DNA from: Escherichia phage vB_Eco_Jura
Reading direction: 5' to 3' (one strand)
DNA length: 64,000 nt
Sequence record: LR999871
The position numbers and the translations under genes are program-made. This document shows, one piece after another, positions 18,701 to 46,615 of the stretch. Numbering within the stretch: the first letter of the stretch is position 1; the number at the start of each line of letters is the position of its first letter. Under the pieces are notes generated by a model. The model did no database searches, was not told the DNA's origin, and was given only the letters and a program-made list of their open reading frames with translations.

Positions 18701-20273
18701 CATCACGAATAGTAACTTCTGCTTCTGGTGCTTGAGCCATAGCTTCTTGTGCTGCCTGTGCAACATAGTCATCAGCAACAGGAGATGCTTCTTCATTCTG
18801 CTTCATAACCCGTTCACCACGAGCTACCAAAGTGTTCTTAATAGGAGAAACAACCTTACCTGCTACACTACCAGCAGCTTTAACACCAGCCATTGTGGTA
18901 CGCAATACAGGAGCAGTTGCAGCACCTGCTAAACGAGCAGCACCAGCCGGAGCCTGTACAACACCAGCAGAACCAAAGCCATAAAGAGCACCTAAACCAG
19001 CTTGTGTACCGACACCTTTAAGCAGGTCTTGGTTCTTATCAATGTTTTGTTGCTGTGCAATATTCTGAGCCAGTTGGCCTGTAGCACCCTGAACACCTTC
19101 TTCCACTGTTTCACGGGCAAGGTTCATACCTACAGCACCTAAAGAACCAGCACGGAAAGGAGCCATCTCAAAACGAGATACTAGAGGACCAGTTGCAGCA
19201 GCAATAGGTAATTGAATAGCAGCAGCAGTAAGACCAGTTTCAGATGCAGTCTGACGACGAGCCTGTTCTGGAGACATACCATCTTTAATATGTTGTTGAT
19301 AAACAGGAGACTTCTCTAAGTCTTTAAGACTCATCTTCATAATTTCATCAGCAGTTTGTTGGTATGCACCACCAGCTTCCATTGCACCAACACCAACCAT
19401 ACCTGGTGCAGCTCTGCCTACAGTAGAAGCAATACGAGCCAGTGACTGAGTACCAGTACCTGCATCAATAGCACCAGCCAATGCAGCACTACGAAGAGTA
19501 TTTGCTGGAACAACTGCTTTACCCAGTAAAGATGCACCCCTTAATACAGGACCAGCACCTAATAGAGAACCTACCCCTTCTGCTAACCCATCAGAAATAA
19601 TAGAGTCAGTTTGAGCAGCGTTCTCAATTGAACCTACAAAATCACGTCCAAATTTAGATAAGGAAGCTACTATGTCATTAGTGCCTTCTTTCTTATCTGT
19701 TTGATACTGACGTTCACTCTCTACTTCACTCATTAAGTTACGAGCAGCAAAGAGCTTACGTTTATCTTGTAATGCTTGGCTTTGGGTAGCATGGACAGCA
19801 TCATTAAACTTACTCAATTGTTGAGCAATGACAGCACCTGCATCATCGTTGAGTAAGCCTGCTCCAAGAGCACCAATGCCCCCAAGGGTATTAACAAAAC
19901 CAAGACCAACACCAGTAGCAATATCCCCCAGTTCTTCCCCAGGAGTTCTTGTAGTAATCGAATCATTGAATACTTGGTTCCCTGCATCAGCACGAGCGTT
20001 GATAAGTTGTAAGCCTTGCTCAACACCATACTTATTCATGATTTGCATTGGAGTCAGATTCATAAAATCTGATTGCACTGTCCCTGGTTCAAATGCATTA
20101 GCCCCAACATTACCAGTACGGGCAGCTTGCATTTGATAAGCAGCATCAGGAGAAACAAGAGGAGTAGTGACACCTTGTTCAGCTTTCTTCTGGGCGGTTG
20201 CAGTAGAGACGTCAACTTGCTTTGCATTGGTTACGCTGTCTGCGAACCCAGCCAGTCTATCAAATACTGACAT
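9771..20273 (-). CDS. virion-encapsidated giant RNA polymerase (N4 vRNAP-type), 3500 aa
   Basis: Track start 20291 is TTG inside the SD; first ATG at 20273 follows AGGAAA, giving exactly 3500 aa. Central region has T7-like motifs: EADGVTNGP (motif A-like), RGIAKNPLTITIYGSG (motif B, R-x3-K-x8-YG), IFDGMN (possible motif C). Confidence 0.85.
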   Translation of the reverse strand: MSVFDRLAGFADSVTNAKQVDVSTATAQKKAEQGVTTPLVSPDAAYQMQAARTGNVGANAFEPGTVQSDFMNLTPMQIMNKYGVEQGLQLINARADAGNQVFNDSITTRTPGEELGDIATGVGLGFVNTLGGIGALGAGLLNDDAGAVIAQQLSKFNDAVHATQSQALQDKRKLFAARNLMSEVESERQYQTDKKEGTNDIVASLSKFGRDFVGSIENAAQTDSIISDGLAEGVGSLLGAGPVLRGASLLGKAVVPANTLRSAALAGAIDAGTGTQSLARIASTVGRAAPGMVGVGAMEAGGAYQQTADEIMKMSLKDLEKSPVYQQHIKDGMSPEQARRQTASETGLTAAAIQLPIAAATGPLVSRFEMAPFRAGSLGAVGMNLARETVEEGVQGATGQLAQNIAQQQNIDKNQDLLKGVGTQAGLGALYGFGSAGVVQAPAGAARLAGAATAPVLRTTMAGVKAAGSVAGKVVSPIKNTLVARGERVMKQNEEASPVADDYVAQAAQEAMAQAPEAEVTIRDAVEATDATPEQKVAAHQYVSDLMNATRFNPENYQEAPEHIRNAVAGSTDQVQVIQKLADLVNTLDESNPQALMEAASYMYDAVSEFEQFINRDPAALDSIPKDSPAIELLNRYTNLTANIQNTPKVIGALNVINRMINESAQNGSLDVTEESSPQEMQNVALAAEVAPEKLNPESVNVVLKHAADGRIKLNNRQIAALQNAAAILKGAREYDAEAARLGLRPQDIVSKQIKTDESRTQEGQYSALQHANRIRSAYNSGNFELASAYLNDFMQFAQHMQNKVGALNEHLVTGNADKNKSVHYQALTADREWVRSRTGLGVNPYDTKSVKFAQQVALEAKTVADIANALASAYPELKVSHIKVTPLDSRLNAPAAEVVKAFRQGNRDVASSQQKADSVNQVKETPVTKQEPVTSTVQTKTPVSEPVKTEPTTKESRPQAIKEPVSQSEKRDVNLTNEDNIKQPTESVKETETSAKESTVTEELKEGIDAVYPSLVGTADSKAEGIKNYFKLSFTLPEEQKSRTVGSEAPLKDVAQALSSRARYELFTEKDVANPAFNGEVIKRYKELMEHGEGIADILRSRLAKFLNTKDVGKRFAQGTEANRWVGGKLLNIVEQDGDTFKYNEQLLQTAVLAGLQWRLTATSNTAIKDAKDVAAITGIDQALLPEGLVEQFDTGMTLTEAVSSLAQKIESYWGLSRNPNAPLGYTKGIPTAMAAEILAAFVESTDVVENIVDMSEIDPDNKKTIGLYTITELDSFDPINSFPTAIEEAVLVNPTEKMFFGDDIPPVANTQLRNPAVRNTPEQKAALKAEQATEFYVHTPMVQFYETLGKDRILELMGAGTLNKELLNDNHAKSLEGKNRSVEDSYNQLFSVIEQVRAQSEDISTVPIHYAYNMTRVGRMQMLGKYNPQSAKLVREAILPTKATLDLSNQNNEDFSAFQLGLAQALDIKVHTMTREVMSDELTKLLEGNLKPAIDMMVEFNTTGSLPENAVDVLNTALGDRKSFVALMALMEYSRYLVAEDKSAFVTPLYVEADGVTNGPINAMMLMTGGLFTPDWIRNIAKGGLFIGSPNKTMNEHRSTADNNDLYQASTNALMESLGKLRSNYASNMPIQSQIDSLLSLMDLFLPDINLGENGALELKRGIAKNPLTITIYGSGARGIAGKLVSSVTDAIYERMSDVLKARAKDPNISAAMAMFGKQAASEAHAEELLARFLKDMETLTSTVPVKRKGVLELQSTGAGAKGKINPKTYTIKGEQLKALQENMLHFFVEPLRNGITQTVGESLVYSTEQLQKATQIQSVVLEDMFKQRVQEKLAEKAKDPTWKKGDFLTQKELNDIQASLNNLAPMIETGSQTFYIAGSENAEVANQVLATNLDDRMRVPMSIYAPAQAGVAGIPFMTIGTGDGMMMQTLSTMKGAPKNTLKIFDGMNIGLNDITDASRKANEAVYTSWQGNPIKNVYESYAKFMKNVDFSKLSPEALEAIGKSALEYDQRENATVDDIANAASLIERNLRNIALGVDIRHKVLNKVNLSIDQMAAVGAPYQNNGKIDLSNMTPEQQADELNKLFREELEARKQKVAKAKAEVKEEIVSEKEPVNPDFGMVGREHKASGVRILSATAIRNLAKISNLPSTQAATLAEIQKSLAAKDYKIIYGTPTQVAEYARQKNVTELTSQEMEEAQAGNIYGWTNFDDKTIYLVSPSMETLIHELVHASTFEEVYSFYQGNEVSPTSKQAIENLEGLMEQFRSLDISKDSPEMREAYVDAIATIEGHLSNGFVDPAISKAAALNEFMAWGLANRALAAKQKRTSSLVQMVKDVYQAIKKLIWGRKQAPALGEDMFSNLLFNSAILMRSQPTTQAVAKDGTLFHSKAYGNNERLSQLNQTFDKLVTDYLRTDPVTEVERRGNVANALMSATRLVRDVQSRGFNMTAQEQSVFQMVTAALATEAAIDPHAMARAQELYTHVMKHLTVEHFMADPDSTNPADRYYAQQKYDTISGANLVEVDAKGRTSLLPTFLGLAMVNEELRSIIKEMPVPKADKKLGNDVDTLLTNAGTQVMESLNRRMAGDQKATNVQDSIDALSETIMAAALKRESFYDAVATPTGNFIDRANQYVMDSIERLSETVIEKADKVIANPSNVAAKGVAHLAKLTAAIASEKQGEIVAQGVMTAMNQGKVWQPFHDLVNDIVGRTKTNANVYDLIKLVKSQISQDRQQFREHLPTVIAGKFSRKLTDTEWSAMHTGLGKTDLAVLRETMSMAEIRDLLSSSKKVKDEISTLEKEIQNQAGRNWNLVQKKSKQLAQYMITGEVGNNLLRNAHAISRLLGERITNSPVADVAAIDKLTTLYSLELMNKSDRDLLSELAQSEVEGMEFSIAYMVGQRTEEMRKAKGDNRTLLNHFKGYIPVENQQGVNLIIADDKEFAKLNSQSFTRIGTYQGSTGFRTGSKGYYFSPVAARAPYSQGILQNVRNTAGGVDIGTGFTLGTMVAGRITDKPTVERITKALAKGERGREPLMPIYNSKGQVVAYEQSVDPNMLKHLNQDNHFAKMVGVWRGRQVEEAKAQRFNDILIEQLHAMYEKDIKDSSANKSQYVNLLGKIDDPVLADAINLMNIETRRKAEELFGKDELWVRRDMLNDALGYRAASIGDVWTGNSRWSPSTLDTVKKMFLGAFGNKAYHVVMNAENTIQNLVKDAKTVIVVKSVVVPAVNFLANIYQMIGRGVPVKDIAVNIPRKTSEINQYIKSRLRQIDAEAELRAAEGNPNLVRKLKTEIQSITDSHRRMSIWPLIEAGEFSSIADAGISRDDLLVAEGKIHEYMEKLANKLPEKVRNAGRYALIAKDTALFQGIQKTVEYSDFIAKAIIYDDLVKRKKKSSSEALGQVTEEFVNYDRLPGRFRGYMESMGLMWFYNFKIRSIKVAMSMIRNNPVHSLIATVVPAPAMFGNVGLPIQDNMLTMLAEGRLDYSLGFGQGLRAPTLNPWFNLTH

Positions 20274-41864: not shown

Positions 41865-43457
41865 TCACACGATATATGAAGAGAGTGGGTTAACACTTCC
41901 AGTATCATCACCATCATCCCACAATGGGTCACCTGATGTATTAACTGGAACCATACCTGCTTGTGGTTTCCACGGGTTCAGGTAGCCAAGCATTGAAATG
42001 GTATCAATACAGTCATCCTTACCTTTAAGACCATTGATAGTGGCTAAACGAATTTGCCCCATAAAGAGTGTCATGATTGGGCTATCTTTCATCTCAGCAG
42101 GAAAATACATCTTACCAGCTTTGAACCAGGGAACCACGAGGTTAAACCTTGATAGCTTACTGGTTACAGGATGAATACCAGGTTGACCTCCACGACTGGA
42201 TGCAAAGTTAAAGAACACATTACGGTTAAGCATTTCCTTCTGAAGAAGACAAATAAAACCACCTTGCTGTCCAGTAGTTTCTACACCAACTTGTTGTGGT
42301 TGATATTCCTGAACCAGACGGAATAAGTCATCAAAGTTCTTATCCATAGTTTGACGGCAAGCAATACCATCTACCCAGAACCAGTCACCGTTAGAACCAT
42401 ATGCCCATACTGATATTACAGAGTAGTCAGATACCTGCTTCTCGCTGGTAGCAAAGTCAGTGGTGATATAGAAGTTATAACAAGAACGTAGACGTAATAG
42501 CTGCGTACGGGAATACCATTTAATCTCTGAATCTTGAATCAGACGTTCATCTTCAGAGCTGATACGTAACATCAATTCCTGATAAAAGGATGCCAGCTTA
42601 CCTGTCTTCAATGCCATCTGGTATTGGTCATTGATGTAGTCATAGGAGAAACGGTCTTCCCAAGCACCTTGAAATTCTTCTCGCGTACATGGGAATTTCT
42701 CACATACAGGCCATACGTTGACATCCCAAGCACCAGATTCAACTGCTTCAATAAGAATATCTTCCTTATTAAAGGGAGTACCATTAAAGATTACCTTACG
42801 TCTTGTTGGGTCAAGAGCATGGTTCACACCCTTATATACCGTGTCTTTAATGGCTTCCATTGATGTACGTGAGCGAGCATCATCATCGCTAACTAAGTCA
42901 TCCAGTACACAAAGAACAGGACGTTTACCAAAAATCTTAGTACCACGAAGACCTGTCTTAGCACCAAACATCTTCACACCAAGACGGTGACCTTCAGCAT
43001 TTACAAACTCAAGGTAGTTATCTGTGAAGGTAGCTTTAGGAATCCATTGTTGTAGGAATGGTGAATTGTTGTATCGAAACTCAATGTTCTTACGGGCAGA
43101 CTTAACACCGTTATCCATAGAGTCAGATACATAAATCATTCCCTCTACTTTACCCAAGCTAGGTAGATGCCCAAACACCGCTAAGAACAGAGTAAAGTAT
43201 TCCATGAACAAAGTTGTCTTTGCTGCACCACGGAAACATAAGTTAGCAATGTACTGATTCTTACTGGTTATCTTATCCAGCATCTTTAAGTGAACAGGAG
43301 GGGTTTTGTTTGATTCCCCCTCCTTACCATTAACCAGCTTAATAAAGTTAGCAAAGGTCAGTGCAAACTCAGTTGGTATATACGTAGGGGTATTCAGAAC
43401 GGAATAGTCCACTTGGTCTAGCCATTCATCCAACTCCTGTTTAATTAGTTCAGACAT
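41865..43457 (-). CDS. terminase large subunit candidate (about 530 aa)
   Basis: Track start 43499 is TTG; first ATG at 43457 follows GAGGA and overlaps the upstream stop (ATGTCTGA). Walker A-like CFRGAAKTT, Walker B-like VLCVLDDLVSDDD, acidic C-terminal nuclease-like region. Confidence 0.65.
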   Translation of the reverse strand: MSELIKQELDEWLDQVDYSVLNTPTYIPTEFALTFANFIKLVNGKEGESNKTPPVHLKMLDKITSKNQYIANLCFRGAAKTTLFMEYFTLFLAVFGHLPSLGKVEGMIYVSDSMDNGVKSARKNIEFRYNNSPFLQQWIPKATFTDNYLEFVNAEGHRLGVKMFGAKTGLRGTKIFGKRPVLCVLDDLVSDDDARSRTSMEAIKDTVYKGVNHALDPTRRKVIFNGTPFNKEDILIEAVESGAWDVNVWPVCEKFPCTREEFQGAWEDRFSYDYINDQYQMALKTGKLASFYQELMLRISSEDERLIQDSEIKWYSRTQLLRLRSCYNFYITTDFATSEKQVSDYSVISVWAYGSNGDWFWVDGIACRQTMDKNFDDLFRLVQEYQPQQVGVETTGQQGGFICLLQKEMLNRNVFFNFASSRGGQPGIHPVTSKLSRFNLVVPWFKAGKMYFPAEMKDSPIMTLFMGQIRLATINGLKGKDDCIDTISMLGYLNPWKPQAGMVPVNTSGDPLWDDGDDTGSVNPLSSYIV

Positions 43458-44142
43458 CAATAATATCCTCGTCTTCTCGAACCAGTGTGGAACCTGCAAT
43501 TACTTTAGTAGGTGTACCGGCTTCAATAGCTGCTTTCTGAGCCTCAGCCAACTGGGTTAGTGTGTTCTTGAGTTCAGTCAATCCAGAGTTTTCTCTCAAA
43601 TCCAGATTGATATTAGTAACAGCATCCTTCGGTTTCTGGAGGTGAGTAAGGATAGAGTTGGCAGCATCACACTGTACCTTCTCACTGGTAGCATTCTTCA
43701 TGAGCCATGCCTGATGGTTCAATGCTTCCTGAAACAAATCCTGATTAACAATCCATACTGGAATCAGTGATTGTTCCATAATGAGGTTTACTAACTTACC
43801 TCTATGGTAAGCAGATACATAAGCAGAGATGTCCTTCTCACTGGTTCCCCTTGCTACTAATTCAGCTTGTCTGTTGGGGAATGTTTTGAAGTAAGCATCT
43901 TTGTTGCTATACCCCATGTGTTTGTAAGTAACATATTGAACAGCATTAAGGTAATCCTGGGTCTTAAACTTCCCATCCTTCATCACCCCAGCATAAGTCA
44001 CAAAGTTATTTCTAATTTGCTCTGCTGCTGTCTGGTCTTGGGTCACATTGTTAATCATGTTTACCAGTTGGTCAGTAACACTGCTTTTAAACTGGGGAGG
44101 CAATGCAGAAACAATGTCTTTCTTCGTCAGTAGTGTGCTCAT
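43450..44142 (-). CDS. terminase small subunit candidate (230 aa)
   Basis: First gene of the minus-strand operon (ATG after AGGAAG), directly upstream of and overlapping the large terminase; by position only. Confidence 0.35.
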   Translation of the reverse strand: MSTLLTKKDIVSALPPQFKSSVTDQLVNMINNVTQDQTAAEQIRNNFVTYAGVMKDGKFKTQDYLNAVQYVTYKHMGYSNKDAYFKTFPNRQAELVARGTSEKDISAYVSAYHRGKLVNLIMEQSLIPVWIVNQDLFQEALNHQAWLMKNATSEKVQCDAANSILTHLQKPKDAVTNINLDLRENSGLTELKNTLTQLAEAQKAAIEAGTPTKVIAGSTLVREDEDIIDV

Positions 44143-44269
44143 AGTCTTCCTACAAATTATCTAGAGTGAAGAGGATTCTTTTCTTGGGGTTAGCACCCCT
44201 TGCAGAAACCTATACATAGATTTAGACTTTAGACTTTCTTTAGTCTCCTTACAATAGTAAGACAGAGAC

Positions 44270-44611
44270 ATGGGGAGCCTATTGCCCAAAGGAACCAGTA
44301 ACATGAGACTATTCTATAGTTTTGACGGTAATGACCAATGGAATGAGATAGACTTCAGTAAAATAGGTGGAGCTATCCCAGTTGGAGGGGCTATGCCAGG
44401 TGACCATATCTTATGTCACGATGAGGAGTCTTTCCATTACATCTCAGGTATGATGTTAATCAATAACGTCACTGGGTTTACTGTCCATAAACCTGCACCA
44501 GTACGTGTCATTACCAAGCCTATCGAGGGTCTTGCATTCTTTACAAGAATACCTCAAAGTATCTCTATCAAACGACAGCGTGACGCCATCGAGATGACCG
44601 TGGTTGCTTGA
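44270..44611 (+). CDS. hypothetical protein (113 aa)
   Basis: ATG-initiated ORF, weak SD; first plus-strand gene after the divergent junction. Confidence 0.4.
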   Translation: MGSLLPKGTSNMRLFYSFDGNDQWNEIDFSKIGGAIPVGGAMPGDHILCHDEESFHYISGMMLINNVTGFTVHKPAPVRVITKPIEGLAFFTRIPQSISIKRQRDAIEMTVVA

Positions 44612-44774
44612 TAAGCCATTGCCCGCCCAGGAGTTGGTGGCGGGAAACAGGGAACTGTTTGAATAACCACTCCAGCTACATTCACCTATCTCCAAGACAC
44701 CTTTGTTATCTGCCATTGGGTGATGAGTAGTATCAGAGAGAACTGATTTAACAAACACACTCGGTATAGGAATT

Positions 44775-44797
44775 GGGAGCCAAATGGCTCCCTTTTT
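44775..44797 (+). terminator. rho-independent terminator
   Basis: Stem GGGAGCC/GGCTCCC with loop AAAT, then TTTTT. Confidence 0.6.
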
Positions 44798-44821
44798 CTT
44801 TTATGAACCAAGGAGTTCTAT

Positions 44822-45187
44822 ATGAACATTCGTCCTAATGAAGTTTATGGTATCAACCTAGAATACACTACAAACAAACCTGCTCTATTTCACTGTGGTT
44901 CCACCAATCTATTCCATGCTATGTGTGGTAATACCAAACCTCTTTACTTACCCGAATCAGACGATACTCATGCCCTACTAGGTAACTGGTTCTTAGAAGG
45001 TAAAGACATTAGTACCATTCTCCTTGAACCAAGGAAGAAAGTAGCAATACCTACTAATGCATGGAATAACGAAGTCATTTACTTCCTCGCACCTGAAGGC
45101 TTTGAACCAGTGATAGAACAGAATCACTTTAATCATGCAGTTACTTTCTACTTCAGAGAGACTTCAAAGTTATCTGCTTATAAATAA
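44822..45187 (+). CDS. hypothetical protein (121 aa)
   Basis: ATG preceded by AAGGAG at optimal spacing. Confidence 0.6.
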   Translation: MNIRPNEVYGINLEYTTNKPALFHCGSTNLFHAMCGNTKPLYLPESDDTHALLGNWFLEGKDISTILLEPRKKVAIPTNAWNNEVIYFLAPEGFEPVIEQNHFNHAVTFYFRETSKLSAYK

Positions 45188-45195
45188 GGAAAGCT

Positions 45196-45324
45196 ATGTG
45201 GTATATAACAGTTAAAGGTTTACCCGAACCAGTGATGATAGATAGCCTGGCATTCGTAGAAGTAGGTCATCCTATTCTTATAGAAGGTAAGTTGTATGAA
45301 GTTGTTAGTATTTATAAGAGATAA
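45196..45324 (+). CDS. candidate small protein (42 aa), absent from the ORF track
   Basis: ATG 4 nt after AAGGAAA; encodes MWYITVKGLPEPVMIDSLAFVEVGHPILIEGKLYEVVSIYKR. Confidence 0.4.
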   Translation: MWYITVKGLPEPVMIDSLAFVEVGHPILIEGKLYEVVSIYKR

Positions 45325-45432
45325 ATAGGAAGTCTATTAGATAGATACCCTATAATTTTTTCTTAGTGAAAATAGTCATAGTTACTTATGAGTTCAGTAT
45401 TTGGTGGGGCTACACCCCTTACACCATAAGCA

Positions 45433-45442
45433 CCCCCCCCCC
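45433..45442. repeat. poly(C) homopolymer tract (10 nt)
   Basis: Uninterrupted run of 10 C in the non-coding stretch 45325-45555, about 50 bp upstream of hairpin motif copy 1. Confidence 0.8.
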
Positions 45443-45491
45443 TGTCTTTACTAGTGTAGCCTTAGCCTACCCCACCTTGTACACGTTACAC

Positions 45492-45510
45492 GTTGCTTCG
45501 CAACTTATGG
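45492..45510 (+). promoter_or_regulatory. hairpin promoter candidate 1 (virion-RNAP type)
   Basis: GTTGC-TTC-GCAAC (5-bp stem, 3-nt loop) then CTTATGG; shares the 16-nt pattern GCT[CT]CGC-NN-CTT[TA]TGG with two other copies. 46 nt upstream of the ATG at 45556. Confidence 0.45.
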
Positions 45511-45555
45511 ACATGTTGTCCGTATCTTATCAATCAACTATTGGAGACTAATACT

Positions 45556-45882
45556 ATGACTACTCAGGCTAACGTTCGTATGACTGTAGGAACTCTGTTG
45601 GGTACTGTTAACGAAGCAGCAACTACTGTAGCTGATACATTCGGTACTGCTACTAAAGCAGTAGGTATGCTTAATCGTTATGTAACTAAACAAGCAGATA
45701 AACAAATCATTCGTGACAAATTAGAAATGCATGAGTTTACCAATAAACTTATTGAAGAAACTGCAATGCAAGAAGCTATTCGTCAGAAACAAATCTTAGA
45801 CTTCTGCAAAGATGAACAAAACAAAGAATTGTTCTCTAATGCCTATGACCGTCTTAGCAAAATCTTAGCAGACTCTAAATAA
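45556..45882 (+). CDS. early protein (108 aa), function unknown
   Basis: Track start 45493 is a TTG inside hairpin copy 1; first ATG at 45556 follows GGAG. Confidence 0.6.
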   Translation: MTTQANVRMTVGTLLGTVNEAATTVADTFGTATKAVGMLNRYVTKQADKQIIRDKLEMHEFTNKLIEETAMQEAIRQKQILDFCKDEQNKELFSNAYDRLSKILADSK

Positions 45883-45894
45883 TAACAAACAAAT

Positions 45895-45918
45895 GGAGGC
45901 TCCTCGGAGTCTCCTTTT
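45895..45918 (+). terminator. rho-independent terminator
   Basis: Stem GGAGGCTC/GAGTCTCC (one G-U) with loop CTCG, then TTTT; 13 nt after the 45882 stop. Confidence 0.5.
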
Positions 45919-45960
45919 ACATAGAACCGATAGTTCAATAACTATCTACTTTAAAGATAA

Positions 45961-45979
45961 GAAGCTCCGCTTCTTTTGG
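45961..45979 (+). promoter_or_regulatory. hairpin promoter candidate 2 (virion-RNAP type)
   Basis: GAAGC-TCC-GCTTC (5-bp stem, 3-nt loop) then CTTTTGG; core GCTCCGC-NN-CTTTTGG identical to copy 3. Confidence 0.45.
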
Positions 45980-46086
45980 ATGAAGTAATGCATCCAATCC
46001 TGTATGAAATCTTAACCTTTTGTCTGGGATTACTTACCGACAAAGTAGTCTCAACTAATCAAAATCAACTATCTGGAGAGTACAAA

Positions 46087-46473
46087 ATGGCTATCACTAC
46101 TTTTGCTAAAACCTTTGGTCAGGCTTCTACTAAAACCGAATCCAACAATGGTTCTCGTCCAAAAGCTCAGTTCTGGATTAACGTTGGCTATGTAGCTAAT
46201 GAAGGCACTGAAGATGAACGTTTCATCTCTCTGCCTACTGGTATTCCACTGGATACTCAGGAGCATCTGCCAACCAATTCCTCTAACGAAGACTTCCGTG
46301 CAATGCGTTGTGCACAGAACGATTTGTTAGACCAACTGATGGAATTTGCTAAGACTCTGGAACCGGGTCAAGAAGGAGTTATCTCACTGCAAGTTCAACT
46401 TCGTCGAGTTAAAGAAGAAGCTCCTGCTATCTCAGCAAGTGAGAATAAATATGCTCGTAAACTGACTTTCTAA
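46087..46473 (+). CDS. early protein (128 aa), function unknown
   Basis: Track start 45976 is the TTG inside the promoter motif; ATG at 46087 has a strong SD (GGAGAG, 7-nt spacing). An alternative ATG at 45988 has a weak SD. Confidence 0.55.
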
Positions 46474-46481
46474 TCTCTATA

Positions 46482-46506
46482 GGACTACCTTCGGGTAGTC
46501 CTTTTT
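46482..46506 (+). terminator. rho-independent terminator (UUCG tetraloop)
   Basis: Stem GGACTACC/GGTAGTCC, loop TTCG, then TTTTT; 9 nt after the 46473 stop. Confidence 0.7.
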
Positions 46507-46615
46507 AATTTTAACTATCTAAATACTAAAGTAGAGATTTTGACCCTTTTCGACGAAGGGATACTAAAAAGTAATGGATAGTTTGAGCAGATGTTTTAGA
46601 AGAAGGAGTATACAG

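Follow-up and report, generated by a model that had tools for sequence, protein, structure and literature searches.

The stretch 44143–45555 of the window (the whole 64-kb stretch of vB_Eco_Jura DNA that was analysed) is very probably, at roughly 85%, the genome-end junction of coliphage N4, with both genome ends, a conserved block and the early promoter P1 brought together in a permuted record that holds one copy of the terminal repeat. The right end of the N4 genome would here run directly into the left end, the terminal repeat being collapsed to that single copy. Reading rightward, the order would be the beginning of the late operon, which runs leftward (gp69 followed by the terminase gene gp68), a divergent control region, gp70 to gp72, a spacer and finally the left end. 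The ends, the terminal repeat and P1 are already known, as published N4 biology of 1985–1988. Compared with the N4 reference, the record described here is permuted, carries one repeat copy and has a C tract one base longer, with no difference in kind.

Identity of the window and layout of the record

By megablast of positions 43400–46600, the Escherichia phage vB_Eco_Jura window is 99.6% identical to vB_Eco_AL25, 99.1% to PMBT57 and 98.2% to reference coliphage N4 (EF056009). Aligned over 7.65 kb around the junction, the nucleotide identity to N4 was 98.1–98.4%, and an additional 9 kb of the window gave 99.6% to AL25 and 98.5–99.3% to the other N4-species isolates listed. The species criterion for N4 is at least 95% nucleotide identity over the genome, and identity is above this value on the stretches of about 7.65 kb and 9 kb that we compared. 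On nucleotide identity the window is assigned to an isolate of coliphage N4, species Enquatrovirus N4, so that the N4-type genome proposed from the sequence-only reading is N4 itself. Position 1 of the window coincides with position 1 of AL25 and of PMBT57, and corresponds to about N4 coordinate 24,880. This bears out the earlier suggestion of a permuted or circularised record and, judged from these coordinates, the window holds the opening 64 kb of an N4-species record whose start was set midway along the genetic map.

Physical ends and the terminal repeat

When both ends of the N4 reference record are aligned to the window, its last base falls at 45401 and its first at 45402. This break lies inside the non-coding stretch between gp72 and gp1, 31 nt before a run of ten C residues, and homology to more distant genera also begins at or near 45402 (megablast). 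Termini of related phages point to the same place. The most frequent read starts of IME11 are GTGGCTGGGGCTACACCC and neighbours 1–2 nt off (PMC3896407, Table 3), and these pile-ups (GTGGCTGGGGCTACAC) are homologous to position 1 of N4, TGGTGGGGCTACACCCC. The KP8 record has an exact 404-bp prefix/suffix repeat that starts with ATTGGTGGGGCTACAC, and KPYAP-1, a close relative of KP8, has a 404-bp repeat as determined by PhageTerm. The annotated terminal repeat of G7C is an exact repeat of 1160 bp starting with TGACAGGGGCTACAC. Although they come from different sources, the N4 record start and the termini of IME11, KP8 and G7C each lie 4–7 nt before an invariant GGGGCTACAC. From the linear form of the N4 record and its agreement with IME11, KP8 and G7C, we infer that its position 1 is the mapped left end. 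The physical ends thus very probably fall inside the stretch, where the sequence-only reading had put them.

The 70,153-bp sequence of N4 is described as having direct terminal repeats of 390–440 bp (PMC3715699), and work by Ohmori, Haynes and Rothman-Denes (1988), as cited in PMC3715699 and PMC3896407, is credited with one unique left end but multiple right ends. No second repeat copy was found within the 64-kb window, and the N4 record has no repeat shared between its two ends. The far edge of the KP8 repeat is at …TTCTGCAAAGAT| and that of IME11 at …TTCTGCAAAGATT|, the motif lying inside gp1; TTCTGCAAAGAT is present in the window at 45802–45813. This far-edge motif leads to a predicted direct terminal repeat at 45402–45813, present here in one copy, with its left end at N4 position 1 and its right edge set by homology to KP8 and IME11. 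The predicted length of 412 bp falls in the published N4 range, which corresponds to ends at 45791–45841. By homology, the termini of this isolate are therefore placed at about 45402 and about 45813. The predicted repeat runs rightward from 45402 into gp1 and does not straddle the stretch.

The arrangement is like that of T7-type ends in its fixed-sequence left end, in a repeat of a few hundred bp and in the single copy expected at concatemer junctions, as well as in the short sequence repeats within the repeat and in rightward transcription towards the junction from a putative promoter near the right end. It is unlike T7-type ends in that the right end of N4 is reported to be heterogeneous and the IME11 termini lie 1–2 nt apart; in addition, terminase and signals are unrelated in sequence. 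The ends of N4 DNA reportedly carry 3′ overhangs. To our knowledge, neither a pause site nor a hairpin intermediate has been shown for N4.

A conserved block at the left end

The last bases of the unique right end before the terminal repeat form a 77-nt AT-rich spacer (45325–45401, 26% GC), of which roughly the final 45 nt show moderate conservation when Gamaleyavirus and Kaypoctavirus phages are aligned. At 45402 the GC content switches from 26% to 48% (45402–45555). The description of the entire non-coding stretch 45325–45555 as AT-rich therefore suits the spacer only, since overall its GC content of 40.7% is close to the window mean of 41.4%.

The spacer is followed on the plus strand by a conserved terminal block (45402–45491) that contains GGGGCTACAC (45406–45415), copies of TACAC, the C10 run and CCTACCCCACC (45466–45476). 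The block was aligned across 19 phages of Enquatrovirus, Gamaleyavirus and Kaypoctavirus, together with further relatives from IMG/VR. TACAC occurs at 45411, 45420, 45480 and 45487, with an inverted GTGTA at 45454; four copies in 94 nt compare with 0.057 expected, and this is the sole such cluster in the window. The last two copies belong to the tandem TACACGT duplication noted previously, which lies at 45480–45493. No other 90-nt segment of the window has as strong an excess of C over G as this block (38 C versus 10 G). Across the alignment an invariant or near-invariant series is seen, consisting of GGGGCTACA-CCC-TACAC at the end, the C tract, CCTACCCCACCT, TACAC-NN-TACAC, P1 and TATGGACATGTYGTCC. 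The C tract, the TACAC repeats and the P1 hairpin keep their position in at least 19 related phages, and this conservation is not due to chance.

The run of ten C residues was read and counted at 45433–45442, as described before. It is the only homopolymer of at least 8 nt in the 64 kb, where the next longest run of G or C is 5. A C tract is present in every relative examined. Isolates of the N4 species have 8, 9, 10 or 12 C residues, most other genera have 7, and the overall range is 6–13. The tract had been suspected of being prone to slippage, which invariance among relatives would have refuted; its length varies. Local inverted repeats around the C tract, GGCTACAC/GTGTAGCC and GGTGGGG/CCCCACC, were considered as a terminal hairpin and rejected, there being no covariation and the second arm, GTGTAGCC in the former pair, being missing from G7C and KP8. 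Because this arm is missing and moderate conservation also extends to about 45 nt on the left side of the cut, no specific structure is supported.

Alternative readings of the junction

Could 45401/45402 be merely the arbitrary start of the N4 GenBank record, with the true ends elsewhere? The records of AL25, PMBT57, BEU and AlfredRasser do open at arbitrary places, and that of N4 has no second repeat copy. However, the IME11 pile-ups, the exact KP8 repeat and the annotated G7C repeat all map to the homologous motif, and composition and conservation break at the same base, which makes an arbitrary start very improbable. We consider it just as improbable that the C10 run arose as an artefact of sequencing or assembly. 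Errors are common in homopolymer lengths, and counts vary between near-identical isolates, yet a run of at least 6 C residues occupies this position in all of the more than 25 relatives, which were assembled independently and belong to three genera; the tract is thus real, and the doubt concerns just its exact length in this isolate. Its polymorphism also bears on the proposal that 45366–45551 encodes a small protein, as annotated in the AlfredRasser record (bas69_0081). An ORF of 61 aa, initiated at GTG, is indeed present in the window and is annotated in that one record. Against this, the ORF crosses the physical end of the genome and includes the C tract, whose lengths of 8, 9, 10 and 12 in the isolates differ by non-multiples of three and would shift the frame. 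The 61-aa product matches no Pfam or PHROG family, and in other genera the DNA motifs of this region are kept, with indels. As it spans the physical end and would be frameshifted by the C-tract polymorphism, this ORF is rejected, and we regard a protein-coding role as extremely unlikely. The view that 45325–45555 is non-coding was upheld, as no credible gene was found within it.

The block flanking the cut on both sides, with GGGGCTACAC, TACAC, the C tract and CCTACCCCACC, is a candidate terminase recognition and cleavage signal. A weaker alternative is that the C-rich, G-poor 45402–45491 acts chiefly on RNA as a Rho-loading (rut-like) site. Such a site would stop gp70–gp72 transcripts made by the host polymerase from crossing the concatemer junction into the early genes. 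The extreme C-over-G skew of these 90 nt, their untranslated state and their location directly after gp72 are in keeping with Rho loading, as is the lack of any predicted intrinsic terminator from gp72 to gp1. Against it, more than C-richness is conserved, namely exact motifs and their spacing (GGGGCTACAC, CCTACCCCACC and the TACAC repeats), and the block begins exactly at the DNA end. We thus judge both the Rho-loading role and the transcript-stopping function that would go with it to be rather improbable, and retain the terminase signal as the preferred reading of the block.

The early promoter P1

The block is followed by a hairpin with a 5-bp stem and a 3-nt loop, GTTGC-TTC-GCAAC (45492–45504). 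It had been put at the very end of the stretch as the first copy of a hairpin motif; the hairpin is there, but 50 nt before the stretch ends, and it corresponds to a known promoter rather than to a motif of unknown nature. The N4 promoters P1–P3 (Haynes and Rothman-Denes 1985; Glucksmann 1992; reviewed in PMC4496689) lie in the leftmost part of the genome and have stems of 5–7 bp and 3-nt loops. Promoters of the N4 virion RNA polymerase (vRNAP) have a hairpin centred at −11 and are read through template A or G at −11, G at −10, G at −8 and C at +1 (PMC4496689). In the window, GCTYCGC has three plus-strand copies, at 45495, 45964 and 49953, and these belong to P1 (45492–45509), P2 (45960–45978, with its start at 45978, outside the terminal repeat) and P3 (49948–49967), all on the plus strand and all with the same vRNAP determinants. 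Each of the three has a stem of 5–7 bp and a 3-nt loop that reads TYC on the non-template strand (template G-R-A). A C occupies non-template −8, and +1/+2 are GG, placed exactly 11 nt from the loop centre. For P1, TTC in the non-template loop corresponds to template G(−10), A(−11) and A(−12); the C at −8 is 45501 and the +1 G is 45509. Compared with the published vRNAP promoters, P1 shows the loop variant with A at −11 (TTC), which the determinants allow, and otherwise no difference.

The stem itself is conserved as a structure. All five inner stem pairs are kept in the 8 promoters compared, and in IME11, pSb-1, Bp4 and a metagenomic contig GTTGC/GCAAC is replaced by CATGC/GCATG, with two fully compensated pairs. 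The stems of P2 and P3 differ from that of P1 yet pair. In the KP8 record an "early promoter" is annotated at the site homologous to P1, and the P1 sequence found here is identical to that of N4, for which a transcription start at P1 is documented in vivo and, on denatured DNA, in vitro (PMC4496689). By this identity the hairpin is the N4 vRNAP early promoter P1, with a predicted start at 45509.

The start of P1 is 108 nt from the left end, inside the terminal repeat. Its leader (45509–45558) carries a hairpin GGACATGTTGTCC from +1 (45509–45521), a Shine-Dalgarno GGAG (45543–45546) and the ATG of gp1 at 45556. The first 500 bp or so of N4 DNA enter the cell first (PMC4496689), which fits P1 as the first available promoter. 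The conserved C-rich block and then P1 would make up the first 107 nt of the repeat. Following entry of these roughly 500 bp, gyrase-driven supercoiling would extrude the template-strand P1 hairpin, which E. coli SSB would stabilise, and the injected virion RNA polymerase would start at the G located 11 nt past the loop centre and transcribe into gp1. Since P1 is inside the repeat, a second P1 is to be expected at the right end of virion DNA, where it would give a run-off transcript of only about 300 nt.

Genes of the right end

A 230-aa minus-strand ORF opens at 44142, as the sequence-only reading had it for the start of the leftward late operon. This is gp69 (43450–44142), by N4 annotation the first gene of that operon, which falls into PHROG 2109, a family without assigned function. 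It is listed among the core genes of N4-like phages (PMC4193335), and the KP8 record labels its gp69 homologue as the small terminase subunit.

Three small genes are transcribed rightward. A plus-strand ORF does open at 44270, about where the plus-strand units were said to begin, but the PHROG 7213 profile matches it from residue 12 only, and by this profile and by the N4 and AL25 annotation gp70 starts at 44303 (44303–44611, 102 aa). An exhaustive search found only 11 relatives of gp70 among 1.84 billion representatives, and a word-indexed search found N4 itself only. With gp70 there was no Pfam family and, using a profile, no sequence match in the PDB; a single-sequence AlphaFold model has a pLDDT of 40. 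After gp70 a terminator scan picked out an intrinsic-terminator-like hairpin, GGGAGCCAAATGGCTCCC, with a T run on the plus strand (44775–44802), where AL25 also annotates a terminator. It is followed by gp71 (44822–45187) and gp72 (45196–45324), which by N4 annotation are small rightward genes of the unique right end.

The term late-to-early junction, which had been used for the stretch, is a simplification, since gp70–gp72 and the terminator-like hairpin separate the late operon from the right end. In LUZ7 the small genes furthest to the right are expressed in the middle stage of transcription (PMC9163698), which makes the term too simple for N4 gp70–gp72. The gene layouts of LUZ7 and N4 are alike, although LUZ7 lacks the element described below.

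A conserved non-coding element upstream of gp70

In the divergent region between gp69 and gp70 we find a conserved non-coding element that occurs once in the window, here called E70 (44223–44284, plus strand), delimited by cross-subfamily identity and alignments. Its boxes are TAGACTTTAG (44223–44232), a second TTTAG 11 nt later (44239–44243), nACAAT (44250–44255) and CCTATTG (44278–44284). A promoter scan reports a σ70-like promoter, TTTAGA-16-TACAAT, at 44228–44255 on the plus strand, and a local palindrome, GTCTC-CTTAC/GTAAG-GAGAC, covers 44243–44269. In a distant blastn of 44080–44330, positions 44222–44298 had 86–92% nucleotide identity to Pseudomonas phage inbricus and Achromobacter phages JWAlpha and phiAxp-3. 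These phages come from another subfamily, and the stretches fetched from them are 54% GC; their protein identity to N4 is 62–74% for gp69, 26–37% for gp70 and, in the two Achromobacter phages, 76% for the large terminase.

A scan of IMG/VR anchored on gp69 returned 80 loci. By motif scan, 30 of them carry the arrangement TAGACTTTAG … CCTATTG with variable spacing, a few of these matches being weak or doubtful. In alignments the clearer copies add the second TTTAG (+11 nt), nACAAT 16–17 nt after the first TTTAG, and TAAG.AGAG. The element ends 15–52 nt before the ATG of the gp70 homologue in all 20 loci that have both, and some loci have E70 without a recognisable gp70. It always lies where the leftward late operon gives way to the rightward genes of the right end. 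A separate scan of IMG/VR for exact 15-mers of E70 gave 51 loci, of which the non-N4-like ones were set aside as chance matches. One recurrent group of 15-mer loci shows third-position variation and has a protein-coding look.

A structured non-coding RNA was considered for E70 and rejected. An Rfam scan of 43900–46300 at E ≤ 1 returned nothing, and RNAalifold predicted no pairs on 15 diverse copies; on four close copies it gave a hairpin without covariation. Given the lack of an Rfam match and of a consensus RNA structure, the signal in E70 is one of primary DNA sequence.

The σ70-like site has 9 of 12 matches and is the only decent plus-strand site of its kind upstream of gp70. E70 resembles σ70 promoters with operator boxes in the geometry of TTTAGA-16-TACAAT, in a spacing of 16–17 nt across diverse relatives and in its location directly upstream of a gene. 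It differs from them in that the invariant bases are not the σ70 consensus bases. Although the −35/−10 spacing is kept, inbricus has lost T6 of the −10 and JWAlpha has only a poor hexamer. The −10 of the Pseudomonas and Achromobacter phages has decayed to TACAAC or GCAAAT, with the other boxes invariant, and the element is single-copy. As rough weights, we give not far short of an even chance to E70 being the promoter/operator of the gp70–gp72 unit. A late-operon or bidirectional promoter seems unlikely, and so, to the same degree, does the group of remaining roles (origin of replication, pac site or other); a promoter for RNAPII we hold to be slightly less likely than these. For a pac role the distance from E70 to the repeat is relevant, as it varies from 1.1 kb in N4 through 1.5 kb in G7C to 3.0 kb in KP8, which argues against it. 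Middle promoters of N4 may carry AAGACCTG. This motif is enriched (8 occurrences versus 2.45 expected), but by eye most occurrences look like in-frame Lys-Asp-Leu codons, and it was left unused as a promoter motif.

Implications for N4-like phages

The only thing that the record itself adds to published N4 biology is a C tract that differs by one base. N4-species records that open in mid-genome (this one, AL25, PMBT57 and the BEU series) should be re-opened at the equivalent of 45402 and given a terminal repeat of about 412 bp. No gene should be annotated on the ORF that spans the junction, and in short-read or nanopore assemblies the length of the C tract should not be relied on.

The terminal block and E70 amount to modest leads and not to discoveries. 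In the phage literature searched, outside which most subscription journals lie, no description of a role was found for either, and their motifs were not found quoted save in the IME11 read table. We suggest only tentatively that both are functional signals, E70 as a family-wide switch, a promoter for a phage-specific factor or a replication origin, and not an ordinary host promoter, and the block of GGGGCTACAC, C tract, CCTACCCCACC and TACAC as an N4-type terminase recognition site that includes a hypervariable C tract. The packaging signal of N4-like phages is still undefined, and the comparison supplies a precise and testable candidate for it. E70, conserved across subfamilies, forms together with gp70–gp72 the least understood corner of the N4 map.

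Sequence duplication and repeated motifs

A perfect 127-nt tandem duplication occupies positions 7389-7642 of the window, directly upstream of a cluster of four plus-strand tRNA genes (Asn-GTT, Ser-TGA, Thr-TGT and Pro-TGG; 7700-8378). When window positions 1-9000 were compared with isolates AL25, PMBT57 and SPSP, 8873 bases aligned in each, exactly 127 fewer, and in the other isolates listed the matching stretch was similarly shorter and fell into two pieces. By these comparisons, the extra copy looks specific to the LR999871 record: either the stretch was truly duplicated in recent times, or the assembly created the second copy in error.

We also scored the motif AAGACCTG, which occurs eight times in the window compared to an expectation of 2.45, a count reached in none of 100 shuffles. 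Four of the eight sites lie at 19023, 26716, 48962 and 60466. Judged by eye, most copies seem to lie in frame on the coding strand, where they specify Lys-Asp-Leu. Codon or peptide effects, and not a signal, probably account for the excess.

Terminal region in related records

Positions 1-228 of the vB_Eco_F22 record (OP870143) repeat the P1/terminal region in inverted orientation, ahead of the true terminal motif, and include N's. The genome end looks misassembled in this record. Two IMG/VR contigs also differ here. One (L023) carries a C13 tract, and the sequence separating that tract from the terminal motif has been replaced. In the other (L037) the terminal block is kept, and after TACACATTACAC unrelated sequence replaces P1.

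Hairpins in non-coding and transcript-start regions

The 210-nt gap between the small rightward genes gp70 and gp71 (44612-44821) is non-coding. It holds a GC-rich hairpin (CCCGCC, 44622-44627; GGCGGG, 44639-44644), with an intrinsic terminator at 44775-44792, well downstream of that hairpin (44622-44644). Upstream of gp69, the first late gene, lies the hairpin GGGGT-TAGC-ACCCC (44186-44200), preceded by TTCTTTTCTT. Its G7C counterpart has the same stem and another loop (GGGGT-GAGAT-ACCCC), and conservation of 44150-44232 in Gamaleyavirus is about 80%. The intergenic region between the gp69-like gene and ORF87 of LUZ7 (NC_013691, 2631-2698) is only 68 nt long and lacks the conserved non-coding element E70. 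It contains a small hairpin, TAGGT-TGA-ACCTA, of the type reported for LUZ7 middle promoters.

Transcripts from the early promoters P1 and P2 both open with a small hairpin that starts exactly at +1: GGACA-TGT-TGTCC (45509-45521) for P1 and GGATG-…-CATCC (45978-45995) for P2. The GGAC/GTCC stem of the P1 hairpin shows no variation over three genera. The P1 hairpin may serve in stabilisation of the 5' end or may be part of the initiation signal.
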